The notes under the pieces are model-generated. The model searched no databases, had not been told where the DNA came from, and saw only the letters and a list, made by a program, of their open reading frames with translations. Source: an uncultured bacterium (GTDB lineage: Bacteria; Margulisbacteria; WOR-1; CAVSGV01). From it: a DNA stretch of 64,000 nt. Location of the stretch: contig CAVYHE010000008.1 in the NCBI GenBank assembly GCA_963768305.1, positions 129,576-193,575 of the forward strand. The letters are read 5' to 3'. Of the stretch, positions 54,098 through 64,000 are shown piece by piece (within the stretch, counting starts at the first letter, position 1; each line of letters starts with the position of its first letter). The translations under genes and the position numbers were made by a program.

Positions 54098-57000
54098 TTA
54101 TTTGGCGAGCGGATCCAATTTATCTTTGTTCATTCGGGCCTTGGTCAATTGCGTACCGACGCTGACATTGTCAAAAGTGGTTTTTTTGAACATGAAATTG
54201 ATCAATTCATCCGACACCTCGATATTATCCGGGTTCTTTTCATCTGCCTTCAAGCTTGCGAATGCCTTATAGCCCTCTCCAAAAGAGCCGTCTTTTTCAT
54301 GCCTGTTCTTCACGATATACTGGATGTACCTGAAATTCTCGACCCCTTGCGCTTTTATCCATTTTATCAGGAACTCCTTGAAGTTTTTCTTGAGATCCGG
54401 AGTGAACTGGTCTGCCGCAGGCCGCGGATTTAATCCTTTCTCATTTCCAAGTAAATAGGGATCTATTGCCAATGCCGTCCCGAACAAGCCGCGTCCGAGT
54501 TCCTCAAAGACCGTATTCTCCATCTTTTCGTCATCTTGCATCACTTGATCTATGTATTTACCCGGGACCATGGCATCCATGAACGGGGACACAAGGGCAT
54601 CCGAAACTACAAGCCCGTATTTGGCGGCGCCGTTGGTCTTGACCGCTTCTTTCCACTCTTCCTTTGCTCTTGCTATGACAGATCTCATGTATGGGTCCAA
54701 GATCGCAGCTTCTGCCCCGCCAAGAGTGAGTTCGGAACCAAAAGCCGCCCACCCGACAAAAGGTATTGCCTTGCTCCCGACCTTTCCTATCGCCTTACTG
54801 CCGAGTTCCGCGGCCAATTTGGAGAATACCTTGACCCCAAGCCGCTTTAAAATGATCTTATTGCAGCCCACGGCAATATCTGGCGCCATGAACGCGGCAA
54901 ACTCGCCCCAGTTCCTAAGCTTTTCATTCTTCACTCCCAGCACATCCATGAGGACTCTCCAGCCGGAAGCCGTAAGTTTCCCGTAGCCGAAACCGCGCGT
55001 GGTTTCGACAAGATCATAACCTACTTTCGGGATCGTTCTCAAGGCTTTCAAGGCCGTCATCCCTTCCTTCAAGGTTTTCAGGGATTGGAGCCCGCCTTTA
55101 ATGCCCTGGCTCTTGAGGAGCATGTATGAGCGAATAACTCCGCTATTTACATATCGAGAACCAAGGATCGTAATTGAGAAATTTAATGACGGGTTCATGT
55201 CCGGCCATATGTAATTAAGCAGGGCGCTTATTCCCACCATCGAGATCATTCCGCCGGCAAACTGAGTGAAACTGACCCCGCCGCCCTTAACAATATACTT
55301 GTCTAATTTCGCTTTTATTTCGGTTGCTTTTCCGACAGGCTCCCCTATCAGTTTCGCGAATTCCCTGTTAGACATTTTCTTTATTCCTGTCTGAAGTTTT
55401 GTGCCGATCTCGTTGAACTTTTCCGTATCCAGGCCCTGCATATCCTTGAATATCTCGTTCCCGAGCTTCTCGCCGTATTCCTGAACAAGCAGCGGCCTTA
55501 ATTCTTCGGAGATCCTCATCCTTTCATTTGTTTCGAGCTCTTTTTTCAATAATGCAGGATCCTCATTTGCCTGATGAATATTTATTCCGCCGAGCAGGGT
55601 GGTCGGATATATGCGTTTCTCCAGCAACATGACTTCATGGGAATTTGGCTTATATTTTTTCAGTCCAGCCAGGACGTTCCGGGCGCTTCCATCCAATCCG
55701 CCTGCGAATTCGATCAACCTTGCGGGCTCCCTGTCGAGGACATTCTCGGCAAGGTCTAACAGGAACCGGTCTTTCTGCCCGTTCAGGTGTAACCCGTTTA
55801 TTTCATTAAGTATCTTGGCAATGTCTTCTCCCTGTAAAATACGCGCCATATAAGCGGAAATATCCGGCGTTGCCGCAAGTTTAGCAATCTTAGCTTTTAC
55901 GTCGGCTTTACTTATCTTTCCCAGCAGGCCGCGGTTGTCCCTCGCTTTCCGGGCCAAAATTCCCAGGAAGCGGAAACAAACCTGGTATCGGGATTTTTCT
56001 ATGTTCAATATTCCAGATGTTTTTACTTTGGTCTCTTCTGATACACCCATTTTGGCGGCAGTAAAGGCGCCCGGAAAGACCTCGTTCCCTATAACGATCT
56101 CTCTGACAGCCCTATGCTCCATCCCCTGAAAAACATTGATCCTCTCAACCAATAGGTCGAGGAGCTCATCCTTGGTTATTGTGCGTCCAATATCCTGAGG
56201 GACCTTGAATCCGCACTTGATCCCGAATAAATTGCAAAGTTTCCCGACCCTGTTATTTATCTCCCCTTTGGAATTAAGCAAAGATATTTCATAGTCCATG
56301 TTGGCGAATACTATTTCAAAAAGCGCGCGGTTGACCCCTTTTTGCCACTTAATATATTCCGCTTTGCTGGTCCGTGCCTGATCATTATCAGTGGCTGACA
56401 AAACTTGTATTTTCTGATAGGTGTCTGCGCCGGCCCCATTTCCCGATCTTTGAACATTTTCAGCATAACGGGCCGCCGCGCCGTCACCCCCTGTCCTCTC
56501 GCTCTTTTTAAAACTCTTTTGGGTATCTTTGTCAAAATTACCGGCGATCTCTTTCAATAGTGCGACCTTGTCATTGAAATTGCGCCTAGCAGCCCTTCCG
56601 ATGATCGGCACTCGTTCGTCAAACTGTGCATTCCAGAGATGAAATTTTTGCAGTATAGGCGACTGCATGAACCCGAGGCCCACGATGTTTTTCCAGCAGA
56701 AATGATACGCCGTATCAACAAATATGAATCTGGCGCATCTTTTTAAGGTCTTTTCCGATGTATCGTACTTTTTTAAAGACTCTAGCCATCTTGCTGACCC
56801 TGCTGCCTTTATCTCTTCAGCTGAAAGAGGCTCTTTCCCCCATTTCGGATCCCAATCTCCGCCCAGGACCTCGAGCCCTTTTTGAGCTTTTTCTAGAGTG
56901 AAATCATAAATATTAAGTATGGTATCAACTAAACGATGCTCTTCCACCCATGCGGCTCTATCTTCAGATGATTTCCAAGCATTTATTGCCGGTTTTACTG

Positions 57001-61603: not shown

Positions 61604-64000
61604 TTAGCTGCGGGGGAAAAGAATTTCCTGACAAAGCGTGTTCAACGTTTTTGTAATGGTCTTTACGGCCTCTTTTTCAACCCCTTCAGCCGGGGATTGG
61701 GCTGCGCTGGCAAACTTACCGTTAGTGGCCGATTTCAATTGGTTAAATATGTATATTGAAACAGCTTCTTCATTTGACAGGGAAGTTTTGCTCGCTATTT
61801 CGATAAGTTTAGACTTTCTGCTCGTTTTAATGACATGTTCTCCGCTTTCATCTTTTTCATACTTATCAAAAGCTCCTTCCACGCTCCACCCGGCTGCCAT
61901 GATCCCAATTTCTTTGCTTATATCAATGCCCTTTGCAACTTCGAATTTTTTGCCCTCCACTTTGGGGTTGAGGAATAACTTTACCTTAACTTCTGCGATT
62001 TGAATTGCCAGCTGGGCTTTCATCGCTTTAAGCACCGGGGTATTTTGCCAGGCTGGCATACTCCAGGCAGTTTCTGGAATGTTCTCGTCAATAAATTTCT
62101 GAATTTCGACGGCACTATCGTCTTTTTGCTTTCTCAGCTCGGCAACAAATAACACTACCAATATCTTCTTTGCTGCCAGTTCAGGCTTGGTTGCCGCCGG
62201 ATAAAGTTCCGGTATTTGCAGGGCCGATCCTAATTCCGTTACCAAGGAACTGATCTTTTCCTTGACGTCGGAACGTGTCAAGAAGTTTCCTTTGATAGAG
62301 ATCAATTGTTCAACGATTTTCTTGTATGCGCTGTCCCAGGAAATAGGTGATTTGTCCGCCCCGACTGAAGTTAAATCTTTCGGCTTTGTTTCTCTAAATA
62401 TTTTAAGAGCTTTAACGCTATTTTCGATCCATGTATCATAACTTCCATCTTCGGCAGGATTTTTTGATATCTCCGCAAGCAGTTTGGGTAGATCTCCTGT
62501 TTGCTCGGGCATATCTTTCTTCCCCGCATCTCCCGCCGGCGCATCCGCAGGCTTTCTTCCCAGCACATAATTGAAGATATTCTCGGGGGTTATCGGCAGA
62601 TTGAATCTCGGCAGGCCTTTTGCTCCAAGGATCCGTTGCTGAGAATCTTCGTCCATTTGAGCGATCAGAATTATAGACACTGAACGAAGAGCAATTTTGT
62701 CAAATAGCCCCTGATCGATGATTGTTGCGTCTGCGATATGAAGGCTGTTTGTGCAGAAGTTGACCATTATCTCTTTCATCGGCGAATTAAATTTATTGAA
62801 GCACGTTAACAAGTCCTTCCCTGTCATCCCGACTTTTACACCAACCTCTTCCGCGACTGATGAGCGTGAATCATATACAGCACGGAGGTCGCTCATTTCA
62901 AAAGATTTCGCATTTTCATAATCTTTAATAGCTAAAGCTATGCCGGTCACCTCATCAGAAGCGGGATATGTCAACTTTGCATACAACTTAATCGCCTCAT
63001 AAACATCGGATAATTCACTTAATGACGCATTTTCGGTGCTCTTGCCGCCAACAATGCCGCCCCTTTCAATAAGATCGAACAATGCCTCGGGTATCCCTAA
63101 TTTTGTCGCTTCATCCCTGTTGATCATTTTATCGGATAACATGGTTTCCACATCAGAACGGGAAATGGTCGTTTTACCTTGATCTTTAGAGATCTGCCAG
63201 AGCATTGACGCCAATGTAGCTCGATCGGTTATCTCGCCCGTCCCGCCCGGAACATCGTTTCCTTTAGTCCCTCCGGAAGCATAGGAAGGAACGTTAATGT
63301 CTAACGCGGGATGCGCCTTGCCGCTTCCAAGAAAGACCGGTTTTTCAACAACGCTGAATCCGCCGTTTTCTTCCTTGACCTTGTCGATCTTGAATCCGAC
63401 ATTTTCGGCGCCGTCCAACACCCATTTATTATCTTTTTTTTCGATCAACCCGACATATGTTTTACCTTTAACGCCCGTAAAACCGATTAATTTCTGATCG
63501 GGCGTCAAGATCAAATACGGTTTCAAAACATTAAAACGGTCGCCGCAAGCAGCATATGTCTCAGGATCATTTTTAATTATTTCCAGGACCTTCTCGCCGA
63601 ACAGCTTTTTGATATCTGCATCCTGAAAAAGTGATGTTATTTCTGCCGCAGAAAATGACATGCTGGATTGAGTTTTGGGATCATAAACTCTCACTTCATT
63701 TTTCGCTTCCGCGATCTCCAGCAGAGTGCTGGGCTGAAGTCCGGATATCGATCCTCGGAAGAACTGCGCTTTTTCTTCGATAGCTTTTAAATAATCTTTG
63801 CCCGCCTTGGATAATGACAACACGTCTTTTATCAACTTGTCGCCTGTTTCGCCTTCAAATTTCCTGATGTCATTAAGAACTATCCCTTTTTGTAAAATGC
63901 TCAGTATTTCCGGGGAATTTGAAGCATTATCAAGCGCTTTTAAGATGTCAGTGAGTGCTTTATTTTTTGCGGGTCCTATGGTCTTTAACGCAGCGCAAAC
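61604..64000 (-). CDS. large hypothetical protein, C-terminal 798 codons (gene runs off the right edge)
   Basis: The ORF-track frame (743 aa from a TTG) stays open with no stop up to position 64000. No domain recognised. Confidence 0.75.
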   Translation of the reverse strand, partial: VCAALKTIGPAKNKALTDILKALDNASNSPEILSILQKGIVLNDIRKFEGETGDKLIKDVLSLSKAGKDYLKAIEEKAQFFRGSISGLQPSTLLEIAEAKNEVRVYDPKTQSSMSFSAAEITSLFQDADIKKLFGEKVLEIIKNDPETYAACGDRFNVLKPYLILTPDQKLIGFTGVKGKTYVGLIEKKDNKWVLDGAENVGFKIDKVKEENGGFSVVEKPVFLGSGKAHPALDINVPSYASGGTKGNDVPGGTGEITDRATLASMLWQISKDQGKTTISRSDVETMLSDKMINRDEATKLGIPEALFDLIERGGIVGGKSTENASLSELSDVYEAIKLYAKLTYPASDEVTGIALAIKDYENAKSFEMSDLRAVYDSRSSVAEEVGVKVGMTGKDLLTCFNKFNSPMKEIMVNFCTNSLHIADATIIDQGLFDKIALRSVSIILIAQMDEDSQQRILGAKGLPRFNLPITPENIFNYVLGRKPADAPAGDAGKKDMPEQTGDLPKLLAEISKNPAEDGSYDTWIENSVKALKIFRETKPKDLTSVGADKSPISWDSAYKKIVEQLISIKGNFLTRSDVKEKISSLVTELGSALQIPELYPAATKPELAAKKILVVLFVAELRKQKDDSAVEIQKFIDENIPETAWSMPAWQNTPVLKAMKAQLAIQIAEVKVKLFLNPKVEGKKFEVAKGIDISKEIGIMAAGWSVEGAFDKYEKDESGEHVIKTSRKSKLIEIASKTSLSNEEAVSIYIFNQLKSATNGKFASAAQSPAEGVEKEAVKTITKTLNTLCQEILFPRS

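Follow-up and report, generated by a model that had tools for sequence, protein, structure and literature searches.

A rare family of giant proteins in Margulisbacteria with a constant, predicted C-terminal membrane module and variable N-terminal regions

The window analysed here, a 64,000-nucleotide (nt) stretch of contig CAVYHE010000008.1 from an uncultured bacterium, ends in three minus-strand open reading frames (ORFs), which encode a partner protein (U), a small ORF product (S) and a giant protein (G). Comparison with related loci indicates that G belongs to a rare family whose members share a constant C-terminal membrane module and differ in their N-terminal region, hereafter called the payload. 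Most of the family genes examined keep one genomic position, and in several cases a U-like gene immediately precedes them. When close relatives are compared, either the payload alone or the entire giant gene is replaced, with sharp homology breaks at a conserved core of U and at a hairpin located 3' of G. Our tentative interpretation, to which we give a probability of roughly 0.42, is that G is a membrane-tethered giant whose exchangeable payload would face the cytoplasm and whose diversity would be maintained by selection through biotic interaction. The arrangement described by an earlier sequence-only reading of this DNA, namely three co-directional ORFs separated by 73 nt (U to S, 61531-61603) and 14 nt (S to G, 61247-61260) and a perfect AGGAGG motif in front of the 2382-codon gene, was recovered as follows.

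54098..61246, minus strand: G, the 2382-amino acid (aa) giant protein, ATG start (coordinates include the stop codon)
61252..61257, minus strand: AGGAGG ribosome-binding site (RBS) of G, 5 nt before the ATG at 61246, read from the sequence
61261..61530, minus strand: S, an 89-aa lysine-rich small ORF, GTG start
61604..64000, minus strand: U, the C-terminal 798 of the 862 aa of the partner protein, a frame of 799 codons without stop

The evidence for the family comes from the C-terminal part of G, which was delineated by similarity and by alignment A1 (16 sequences: G and P0009 to P0023) and in which the following parts were distinguished.

54101..55852, minus strand: conserved C-terminal module, G residues 1799-2382
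55127..55285, minus strand: hydrophobic helical hairpin 1, G residues 1988-2040, with a short conserved turn, WPDMNP
54701..54796, minus strand: hydrophobic segment 2, G residues 2151-2182 (IPFVGWAAFGSELTLGGAEAAIL), with a family-averaged hydropathy peak of 1.37
54110..54562, minus strand: C-terminal helical subdomain, G residues 2229-2379, the sole confidently modelled part

An exhaustive HMMER search with G residues 1183-2382 against 1.84 billion representative sequences led to the recovery of 16 clusters, including that of G itself. The 15 non-self clusters gave phmmer E values of 2e-168 to 2e-9 and were confirmed by local BLASTP and phmmer, and every non-self match fell within residues 1873-2382 or so. 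The homologues are therefore extremely rare and are not ubiquitous single-copy core genes, a case that the sequence-only reading had left open. The closest relative, a giant of at least 2212 aa encoded at locus L082, is 53% identical to G over residues 1799-2382 (BLASTP and phmmer) and unrelated to it before residue 1799. The 14 further relatives align with approximately residues 1900-2382, or with shorter parts of this region, at 26-37% identity by BLASTP (19-37% in A1) and with E values of 1e-17 to 1e-78. A metagenome scan performed with alignment A2 returned a single locus, L082. Motifs conserved in A1 include MSNxEFAxLIGE, PDMNPSL, GWxxLMDxLGVKN, AFxAPD, VGWxxF..L..GGAE and DPYMRSVxARAKxxWKE, and DPYMRSVIARAKEEWKE is among the motifs of the module of G.

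The module is C-terminal in proteins of 230-3509 aa; it occupies the very C-terminus in 13 of the 15 relatives, while P0019 and P0023 carry about 180 extra residues after it. The region that precedes it is of several kinds. The N-terminal part of the L082 giant matches SecA_DEAD (E = 1e-20), P-loop_SecA and DEAD, that of P0017 (3445 aa) matches SecA_DEAD and SecA_PP_bind, and that of P0011 (3020 aa) gives a weak DEAD match, so that the SecA-like giants bearing the module range from 2200 to 3445 aa. P0014 combines a Pkinase domain with a weak GGDEF match, an N-terminal GGDEF domain is found in P0013, P0016 and P0018, and no recognisable domain precedes the module in P0010, P0019, P0021 and P0023. 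The SecA-like regions of P0011, P0017 and the L082 giant do not resemble any part of G, and no divergent SecA DEAD-like or preprotein-binding domain was detected in G.

The arms of hairpin 1 correspond to G residues 1988-2011 and 2018-2040, with a family-averaged hydropathy peak at residues 1992-2010. Its turn is free of Lys and Arg residues and the loop after the hairpin contains 10 of them; the flanks of segment 2 are likewise rich in Lys and Arg (7 and 6 residues). AlphaFold2 (AF2) run with A1 produced an all-helical model of the module with a mean predicted local distance difference test score (pLDDT) of 63.7, reaching about 80-94 for module residues 330-480. Foldseek searches with this model, a check that the sequence-only reading had recommended, found no structural neighbour (best E values of 0.66 in the PDB and 0.98 in BFVD). 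Since the hydrophobic part is modelled with low confidence, the missing fold match is weak evidence. The module matched no Pfam or NCBIfam family, PDB profile searches with A1 and A3 gave chance-level matches only, and no similarity in sequence or fold to a known pore-forming helical domain (colicin, diphtheria toxin T or type III secretion translocator) was seen. Taken together, these alignments indicate that the module is a real, conserved and undescribed domain. The earlier suggestion of a C-terminal membrane-active-looking module is thus supported by the exhaustive HMMER search, A1 and hydropathy, which also identify it as the sole conserved part of G.

The remaining three quarters of the protein behave as an orphan, in which two features were noted.

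55853..61246, minus strand: orphan payload, G residues 1-1798, helical for the most part apart from a small beta region around residues 339-373, and starting with MVPGIG
58112..58213, minus strand: mid-protein hydrophobic segment, G residues ~1012-1045 (LLFMQSLFLPGRSFSLIAILLGAAGRFSL), with a 19-residue Kyte-Doolittle (KD) mean of 1.58, the maximum of the protein

Residues 1-1798 matched no family and no PDB entry and found no relative among the fetched loci; for residues 1183-1798, the exhaustive HMMER search retrieved only the fragment of G itself. At the level of the three products, Pfam and NCBIfam (E <= 0.1) gave no match for G or S and one sub-threshold chance match for U, a PDB sequence search, PHROGs and PADLOC returned nothing for G, S and U, and PADLOC-DB 2.0 contained no match at E <= 0.01 for these proteins or for P0005 and P0002, the giant and the partner protein of locus L081. 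Described structural families, including bactofilins, SLH and intermediate-filament-like proteins, were looked for in G, S and U and none was found, so that the assignment to a cytoskeletal or S-layer family considered in the earlier note did not materialise. Glucosyltransferase, cysteine protease, RTX, Ig/cadherin and YD-repeat domains and autotransporter barrels were equally missing from G in Pfam and NCBIfam. The sequence-only reading, which had reported no assignable domain, P-loop, repeat or signal peptide in proteins of K/E/L/A-rich, largely helical character, agrees with these results: G contains neither a Walker A motif nor HExxH, internal repeats are missing, its N-terminus (MVPGIGVVDQTTTK) shows no hydrophobic signal core and no visible signal peptide, its composition is 10.6% L, 9.8% K, 8.1% A, 8.0% G and 6.9% E, and its predicted secondary structure is mostly helix. 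The term "domain-less" stands insofar as no curated domain is present, but it does not extend to the conserved module at G ~1799-2382 or to a core of about 215 aa in U.

These negative results differ in weight. A tblastn search with the C-terminal 584 aa of G against 72,556 plasmids and 50,697 phages returned nothing, nor did a scan of IMG/VR; a pattern scan of GTDB genomes with G was also empty, by a method that detects close relatives only. The word-seeded search with full-length G came back empty despite the presence of P0004, a fragment that represents the cluster of G itself and is 99% identical to residues 1522-2382; this is a false negative and was not used as evidence of orphan status. 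With the 16-sequence profile A1 the same kind of search found only P0004 and P0009, as compared with the 16 clusters of the exhaustive search, and we regard its negatives for long or divergent queries as untrustworthy. AF2 modelling of residues 1-1010 without an alignment gave an unusable model (pLDDT 37.9).

A short likeness was noticed at the N-terminus. G starts with MVPGIG (window 61229-61246), the unrelated syntenic giant P0005 with MVPPVG (L081 11877-11894), and the 1161-aa protein encoded upstream of the giant in L091 with MVPPIG (L091 4494-4511), and these three proteins share no likeness beyond this hexapeptide. The hexapeptide could serve in processing, in targeting or in the control of translation.

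The distribution of the homologues and of their neighbours, which the sequence-only reading had proposed to determine, points to a common chromosomal slot. Seven loci were examined in all, and the six related ones are organised as follows.

L081: response regulator, PGM, LigB, AMMECR1, argC, argJ, argB, TPR protein, DUF6782-like peptidase, P0002, giant P0005, S26 peptidase, LiaF-like, DUF8173
L086 (P0017): the same seven upstream genes as L081 (response regulator to argB), 720-aa protein, giant, two GAF-like genes, argF, argG, argH, ndk
L091 (P0019): argC, argJ, argB, DUF6782-like gene, 1161-aa protein, giant
L089 (P0013): module gene, PG_binding_1/YkuD, argF, argG
L090 (P0014): module gene, argF, argG, argH, ndk
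L085 (P0011): 680-aa protein overlapping the giant start by 1 nt; no arg genes on the stretch

The argCJB genes, the argFGH genes or both adjoin five of the six related loci. The arg-adjacent slot is seen directly for L086, L089, L090 and L091 and for the syntenic L081, and the window is matched to it by its downstream flank only. A gene of 610-1161 aa lies directly upstream in four of the six, and three of these four products share the core of about 215 aa with U, so that a U-like partner immediately precedes the giant in the window, L081, L085 and L086. We conclude that this arrangement is old, since L081 and L086 have diverged to 57-69% identity in their housekeeping proteins; between L081 and L091, the DUF6782-like genes show 50% identity. 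No phage or plasmid homologue of the module was found and the neighbours are chromosomal housekeeping genes, which does not suggest a phage, plasmid or integrative and conjugative element origin. The unit of this one lineage would thus pair a partner gene with a giant gene and lie, in most cases, between argCJB and argFGH.

Replacement within this slot is clearest when the window is compared with L081. Downstream of G, the LiaF-like protein (53586-53825) and the product of 52646-53509 are 89% and 83% identical to their L081 counterparts, and the DNA is 88% identical from window position 54085 downstream. In contrast to this flank, G shows no similarity to P0005 (2714 aa), the giant at the syntenic position, by BLASTP, phmmer --max or hhalign; P0005 itself has only a weak PG_binding_1 match, and its PDB search gave chance-level results only. 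Homology between the window and L081 resumes about 50 nt past the stop codon of G. In L081 (20075-20533) and L082 (6705-7154), the giant is immediately followed by a gene for a short S26 signal peptidase of 149-152 aa. This gene is missing from the window (53826-54097), and the homology break lies at its former 3' end. Beyond the break lies an unusual non-coding element.

53803..54052, strand unassigned: ultra-conserved non-coding stretch of 250 nt, 99.6% identical to L081 (20553-20798)

The coding DNA beyond this stretch is 84-88% identical to L081; a second block, at 53503-53552, is 100% identical. The stretch includes a long hairpin of about 60 nt (53978-54038), which is preceded by an A-run in gene orientation and reads on the plus strand as a hairpin followed by T7. 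The same hairpin, at 85% identity, abuts the stop codon of the GGDEF-type module gene of L089 (4165-4237), despite the fact that the G and L089 modules are only about 32% identical as proteins. It occurs once in the window, versus 0.02 occurrences expected by chance, and it folds alike in both variants (z = -2.5 and -1.5), the middle helix being changed on both sides. The conserved intergenic block had no Rfam match at E <= 1, and we rejected a known non-coding RNA as its identity: the whole 235 nt fold no better than shuffled sequences (z = -0.65), only the hairpin doing so. The hairpin may be a terminator, the end of a small RNA or a recombination boundary.

A further conserved part of the unit lies in the partner protein.

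62492..63133, minus strand: conserved U core, residues 354-567 of the full-length protein (P0001), with the motif LGAxGLPxFNLPITPENIFNYVLGRKPA

This core of about 215 aa is the sole part of U that is common to the partner proteins of other loci. U itself retrieved a single homologue, P0002, the 610-aa partner in L081, whose residues 189-396 are 41% identical to the U core; the 720-aa protein of L086 matches the P0002 core (BLASTP E = 1e-7), and a hidden Markov model built from these three cores found the 680-aa protein of L085 weakly (E = 1.7e-4). In the DNA, two islands inside the U core align with L081, one of 135 nt (84% identity) and one of 84 nt (74%), while the sequence around them is unalignable. 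P0002 also carries an SH3_3 domain and has no signal peptide. Two further candidates were set aside. The apparent P-loop of U (GGIVGGKS) was rejected, P0002 having GGKG at this place, and EF-hand/dockerin-like loops at the start of the core gave sub-threshold Pfam matches in one relative only (E = 0.03-0.09), a lead and not a finding.

We also considered whether the ORFs are genuine genes. A 2382-codon open frame in DNA of 47% GC cannot arise by chance. A protein identical to G is present in the public collection (P0003), and an independent Logan contig (run ERR10755942) is 99.9% identical to the window over 54019-57283, that is 3.3 kb of G. The synonymous codon usage of G matches that of the housekeeping genes of the window (relative synonymous codon usage, RSCU, r = 0.75, versus 0.37 for the +1 frame). 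Within G, the GC content at third codon positions (GC3) is about 0.51 for the payload and climbs to 0.56-0.59 for the module, nearer to the housekeeping genes (GC3 0.56-0.64, RSCU r 0.62-0.94); this gradient would weakly fit an old module joined to a payload that is younger or under less constraint. The full-length U is 862 aa long (P0001, 100% identical to the translation of the window), its first 64 aa being encoded beyond the window end at 64000, and its codon usage is atypical (GC3 0.46, RSCU r = 0.37). The giants have the same GC content as their contigs. A recent horizontal acquisition was rejected on the host-like GC content and codon usage of G, although U and S do deviate.

S is the least certain of the three genes and its status as a gene is uncertain. 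It is called as a gene in NCBI/ENA (P0006), but its GC3 is very low (0.32, versus the housekeeping range above), no RBS is visible, no homologue was found in any fetched locus and no match in the PDB, and in L081, L085, L086 and L091 the partner and giant genes have no comparable ORF between them. It starts with a 15-nt tandem duplication (window 61486-61530, minus strand; GTGAAAACGGATGCG GTGAAAACAGATGCA), which reads VKTDA VKTDA.

The possibility that the long ORFs are assembly chimeras or non-functional remnants deserves hardly any credence. It draws on a frameshifted glmS on the same contig, on the odd composition and missing RBS of S, and on a Logan contig (L083) in which the G gene contains a stop and a frameshift. 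The sole difference between the latter (431-438) and the window (56846-56853) is a cluster of three changes at GGGATCCG, two of them G>A and the third the loss of a G, which create a TAG stop and a frameshift, so that the gene is called in two pieces there; this is either an assembly error, for example in basecalling at a GATC/BamHI-like site, or a real disrupted variant. Against these points stand the unbroken 7.1-kb frame, the perfect RBS, the native codon usage, the near-identical 3.3 kb of the independent assembly, and the preservation of the partner core as well as of the module, which recurs in 16 clusters. For U and G, an artefact can practically be dismissed.

The rest of the window consists of ordinary chromosomal genes (gatA, gatB, tsaD, pdxA, mdh, purC, ABC transporters and enzymes of the GH8, GH42 and GH94 families). 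The best matches of GatB are metagenome-assembled genomes (MAGs) and one single-amplified genome labelled Margulisiibacteriota, WOR-1 or Saganbacteria, with identities of 58-78%: 78% to a complete 1.77-Mb MAG, then 70%, 68% and 58-62%. Judged from GatB, the contig belongs to Margulisiibacteriota. Margulisbacteria are the sister lineage of Cyanobacteria. The remark of the sequence-only reading that housekeeping genes of this contig are interrupted, unlike the long ORFs, holds for at least glmS, which is split into two overlapping plus-strand ORFs, a GATase part (39617-40630) and a SIS part (40536-41441, ending in ...KSVTVE). This frameshift of an essential gene is probably an assembly indel, and the contig probably carries indel errors. 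Three more ORFs of the window had no Pfam match at E <= 0.05 (45030-48143, plus strand, 1037 aa; 41369-43036, minus strand, 555 aa; 37121-38128, plus strand, 335 aa). They show no similarity to G, U or the related loci, and the 1037- and 555-aa ORFs have a host-like codon usage. Downstream of G, a minus-strand pair at 52646-53825 encodes the 79-aa LiaI/LiaF-like membrane protein (53586-53825) and a 287-aa protein (52646-53509) with a weak bactofilin-like N-terminal part (Pfam E = 0.009), whose L081 orthologue is annotated DUF8173. This pair is conserved between relatives and is therefore probably outside the cassette.

How might such a protein work? In the interpretation that we favour, the module would anchor G in the cytoplasmic membrane through its hairpins, leaving both the payload and the folded end domain on the cytoplasmic face, and U would act with G through its conserved core. 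The variable parts would be swapped by recombination and kept diverse by biotic interaction with phage, host, prey or neighbouring cells. G would then be a "no-enzyme" allele of a payload-swapping membrane system in which the payload of relatives is a SecA-type motor, kinase or GGDEF domain. A cytoplasmic location of the payload is suggested by these relatives, since SecA-type motors, kinases and GGDEF domains need cytoplasmic nucleotides, as well as by the missing signal peptide and by a Lys/Arg distribution that fits.

Several points weigh against this interpretation. The topology is deduced from hydropathy and a charge count only, and the hydrophobic middle of the module is modelled at pLDDT <50. 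The hydrophobic segments reach only moderate values (KD 1.2-1.6), and their abundance of Gly and Ala recalls toxin domains that insert into membranes. Domains of envelope type occur in neighbours and partners (SH3_3 in P0002, a weak PG_binding_1 in P0005, PG_binding_1 and YkuD in L089, S26 in L081 and L082), and a cytoplasmic protein would not usually vary to such an extreme degree. P0005, the giant at the syntenic position in L081, has no module, so that the rule of one family in one slot is not strict. In large databases, G residues 1-1182 were covered only by the unreliable word-seeded search, and the taxonomy of the loci other than the window was inferred from synteny.

Some of the same observations would suit an exported effector or toxin, the analogy drawn by the sequence-only reading. 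G would exit through an unrecognised route, and its module would act in membrane insertion or translocation so as to deliver the N-terminal part to another cell, inside it or on its surface; U and peptidases encoded nearby would assist export or processing. The hairpins are weakly hydrophobic, Gly/Ala-rich and set amid K-rich amphipathic helices, the wholesale divergence of close relatives resembles an arms race, and a kinase payload would suit an effector. Export would also be in line with the SH3_3 domain of P0002, which has no signal peptide, the weak PG_binding_1 of P0005, the YkuD and PG_binding_1 domains, the S26 peptidase after the giant in two loci and the DUF6782-like metallopeptidase upstream in two loci; published giants with SecA-like domains have been proposed to act on prey cell walls (bioRxiv 10.1101/2023.11.21.568195). 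On the other side, none of the examined loci, the window included, has recognisable dedicated secretion-system genes beside the pair. A signal peptide is missing from G, Pfam, NCBIfam and PADLOC yielded neither a toxin nor an immunity family, and Foldseek gave no match to a pore-forming or translocation domain. A conserved C-terminus with a variable N-terminus is the reverse of the polymorphic toxin layout, the position is stable over deep divergence and the GC content native, unlike those of a mobile toxin cassette, and GGDEF domains and SecA-type motors, which are cytoplasm-type enzymes, would make odd cargo. These results do not establish the analogy; an exported effector is the main rival to our interpretation, one that we consider rather unlikely.

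A reading as an anti-phage or abortive-infection system, in which the variable N-terminus would sense, the module would collapse the membrane and U would be a co-sensor or regulator, seems quite improbable to us. In defence systems, a membrane effector that is conserved is often joined to heads that vary and act as sensors or enzymes, such as helicase-like ATPases, kinases or nucleotide cyclase-like domains, and the layout described here, GGDEF heads included, is similar; the locus is also hypervariable between close relatives at a fixed hotspot. However, PADLOC was empty for G, S, U and the L081 pair, no nuclease, NADase or other usual partner was found, no mobile-element genes lie nearby, the gene is kept in the same slot in the related loci seen instead of being sporadic, and the proteins are far bigger than typical defence proteins. 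Even less credible is a dedicated export machine, with the giant as a private translocase and U as its exported, surface-exposed and variable substrate. SecA_DEAD, SecA_PP_bind and P-loop_SecA domains in module-bearing giants, the SH3_3 or weak EF-hand-like loops of U-like proteins that have no signal peptide, and the tight coupling of U and giant would fit, but G has neither an ATPase motif nor a SecA-like region, the kinase and GGDEF members have no U-like partner of this type, and 1800 aa of orphan sequence would be left without a role. As to how variants in the slot are generated, it is conceivable, although we hold it for doubtful, that the slot functions by cassette exchange, the module or the whole giant gene being recombined onto interchangeable multi-kilobase payloads, with the U core as the upstream limit of the exchange and the ~60-nt hairpin at the stop codon as the downstream one.

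Whatever its role, the locus defines a constant membrane module of about 480-580 aa that is missing from Pfam, NCBIfam, the PDB, PHROGs and PADLOC, and this module ties orphan giants to giants with SecA-like motors and to proteins with kinase or GGDEF domains. Margulisbacteria were found enriched in huge proteins in one survey, which notes that no COG was assigned to them (PMC11573180), and they are named among the phyla with many very large genes in a preprint (bioRxiv 10.1101/2023.11.21.568195). Both surveys are silent on the role of these large proteins, for which the present locus gives a handle. With an outward-facing payload, G would display a surface structure or an effector in a new way, no known secretion signal being involved; with an inward-facing one, it would be a rare hypervariable cytoplasmic giant, possibly a conflict system. 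Should cassette exchange prove true, the whole phylum Margulisbacteria would possess a dedicated hypervariable interaction organelle.

Several known systems share part of this organisation. Streptococcal M proteins and trimeric autotransporter adhesins combine a conserved C-terminal membrane or wall anchor with a hypervariable N-terminal region at a fixed locus, and G resembles them in having a conserved C-terminal anchor, a diversifying N-terminal region and a fixed locus. Unlike them, it has no signal peptide, LPXTG motif, beta-barrel or repeats, and its relatives carry cytoplasm-type enzymes in the "exposed" position. Polymorphic toxins (CdiA, Rhs and LXG, known from the work of Zhang and Aravind) have a conserved N-terminal trafficking region, a variable C-terminal toxin and an immunity gene downstream. 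G is similarly large and modular, with one end swapped between strains and sharp recombination boundaries, but its C-terminus is the constant end and its N-terminus the variable one, and it has no recognised toxin, immunity or trafficking domain. The gene after G is not an immunity gene, since it encodes the conserved LiaF-like membrane protein, which is 89% identical in a relative with a different giant, and the position of the G locus appears to be inherited vertically, unlike that of polymorphic toxin systems.

AB toxins and colicins insert into membranes by helical domains with hydrophobic hairpins, examples being the pore-forming domain of colicins, the T domain of diphtheria toxin and the delivery region of TcdA and TcdB. 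The G module is likewise all-helical, with hydrophobic hairpins among amphipathic helices, and C-terminal to enzymatic cargo, and no sequence or structural similarity to these domains was detected. Membrane-anchored Ser/Thr kinases and GGDEF proteins are approached by P0013, P0014, P0016 and P0018, which join a signalling domain to the module. G differs from such enzymes in having no enzymatic domain, in that its anchor is C-terminal and comprises about 480 aa with a folded end domain, and in the sizes reached by the family, up to 3500 aa. Cassette exchange at this slot would be similar in layout to integron attC sites or a shufflon, except that protein-coding payloads of 5-10 kb would move here.

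The nearest published parallel is with the "Archaeovorin" and "Dockerin-type" giants of Omnitrophota, also reported from Actinobacteriota, which have divergent SecA_DEAD domains and transmembrane regions (West-Roberts et al. 2023, bioRxiv 10.1101/2023.11.21.568195). G is smaller (2382 aa versus >10,000-30,000 aa), has about three hydrophobic regions instead of numerous ones, and has no SecA-like, carbohydrate-active or adhesion domain; an arg-cluster slot, a U-like partner and wholesale allele replacement are not described in the part of the preprint covered here. G and these giants are alike in being very large, mostly unannotatable proteins of uncultivated small-genome bacteria with transmembrane segments near the C-terminus. 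Furthermore, the G module is homologous to that of proteins of 2200-3445 aa bearing SecA_DEAD, SecA_PP_bind or P-loop_SecA domains, and GGDEF domains occur both in the module family and among the Omnitrophota-type giants.

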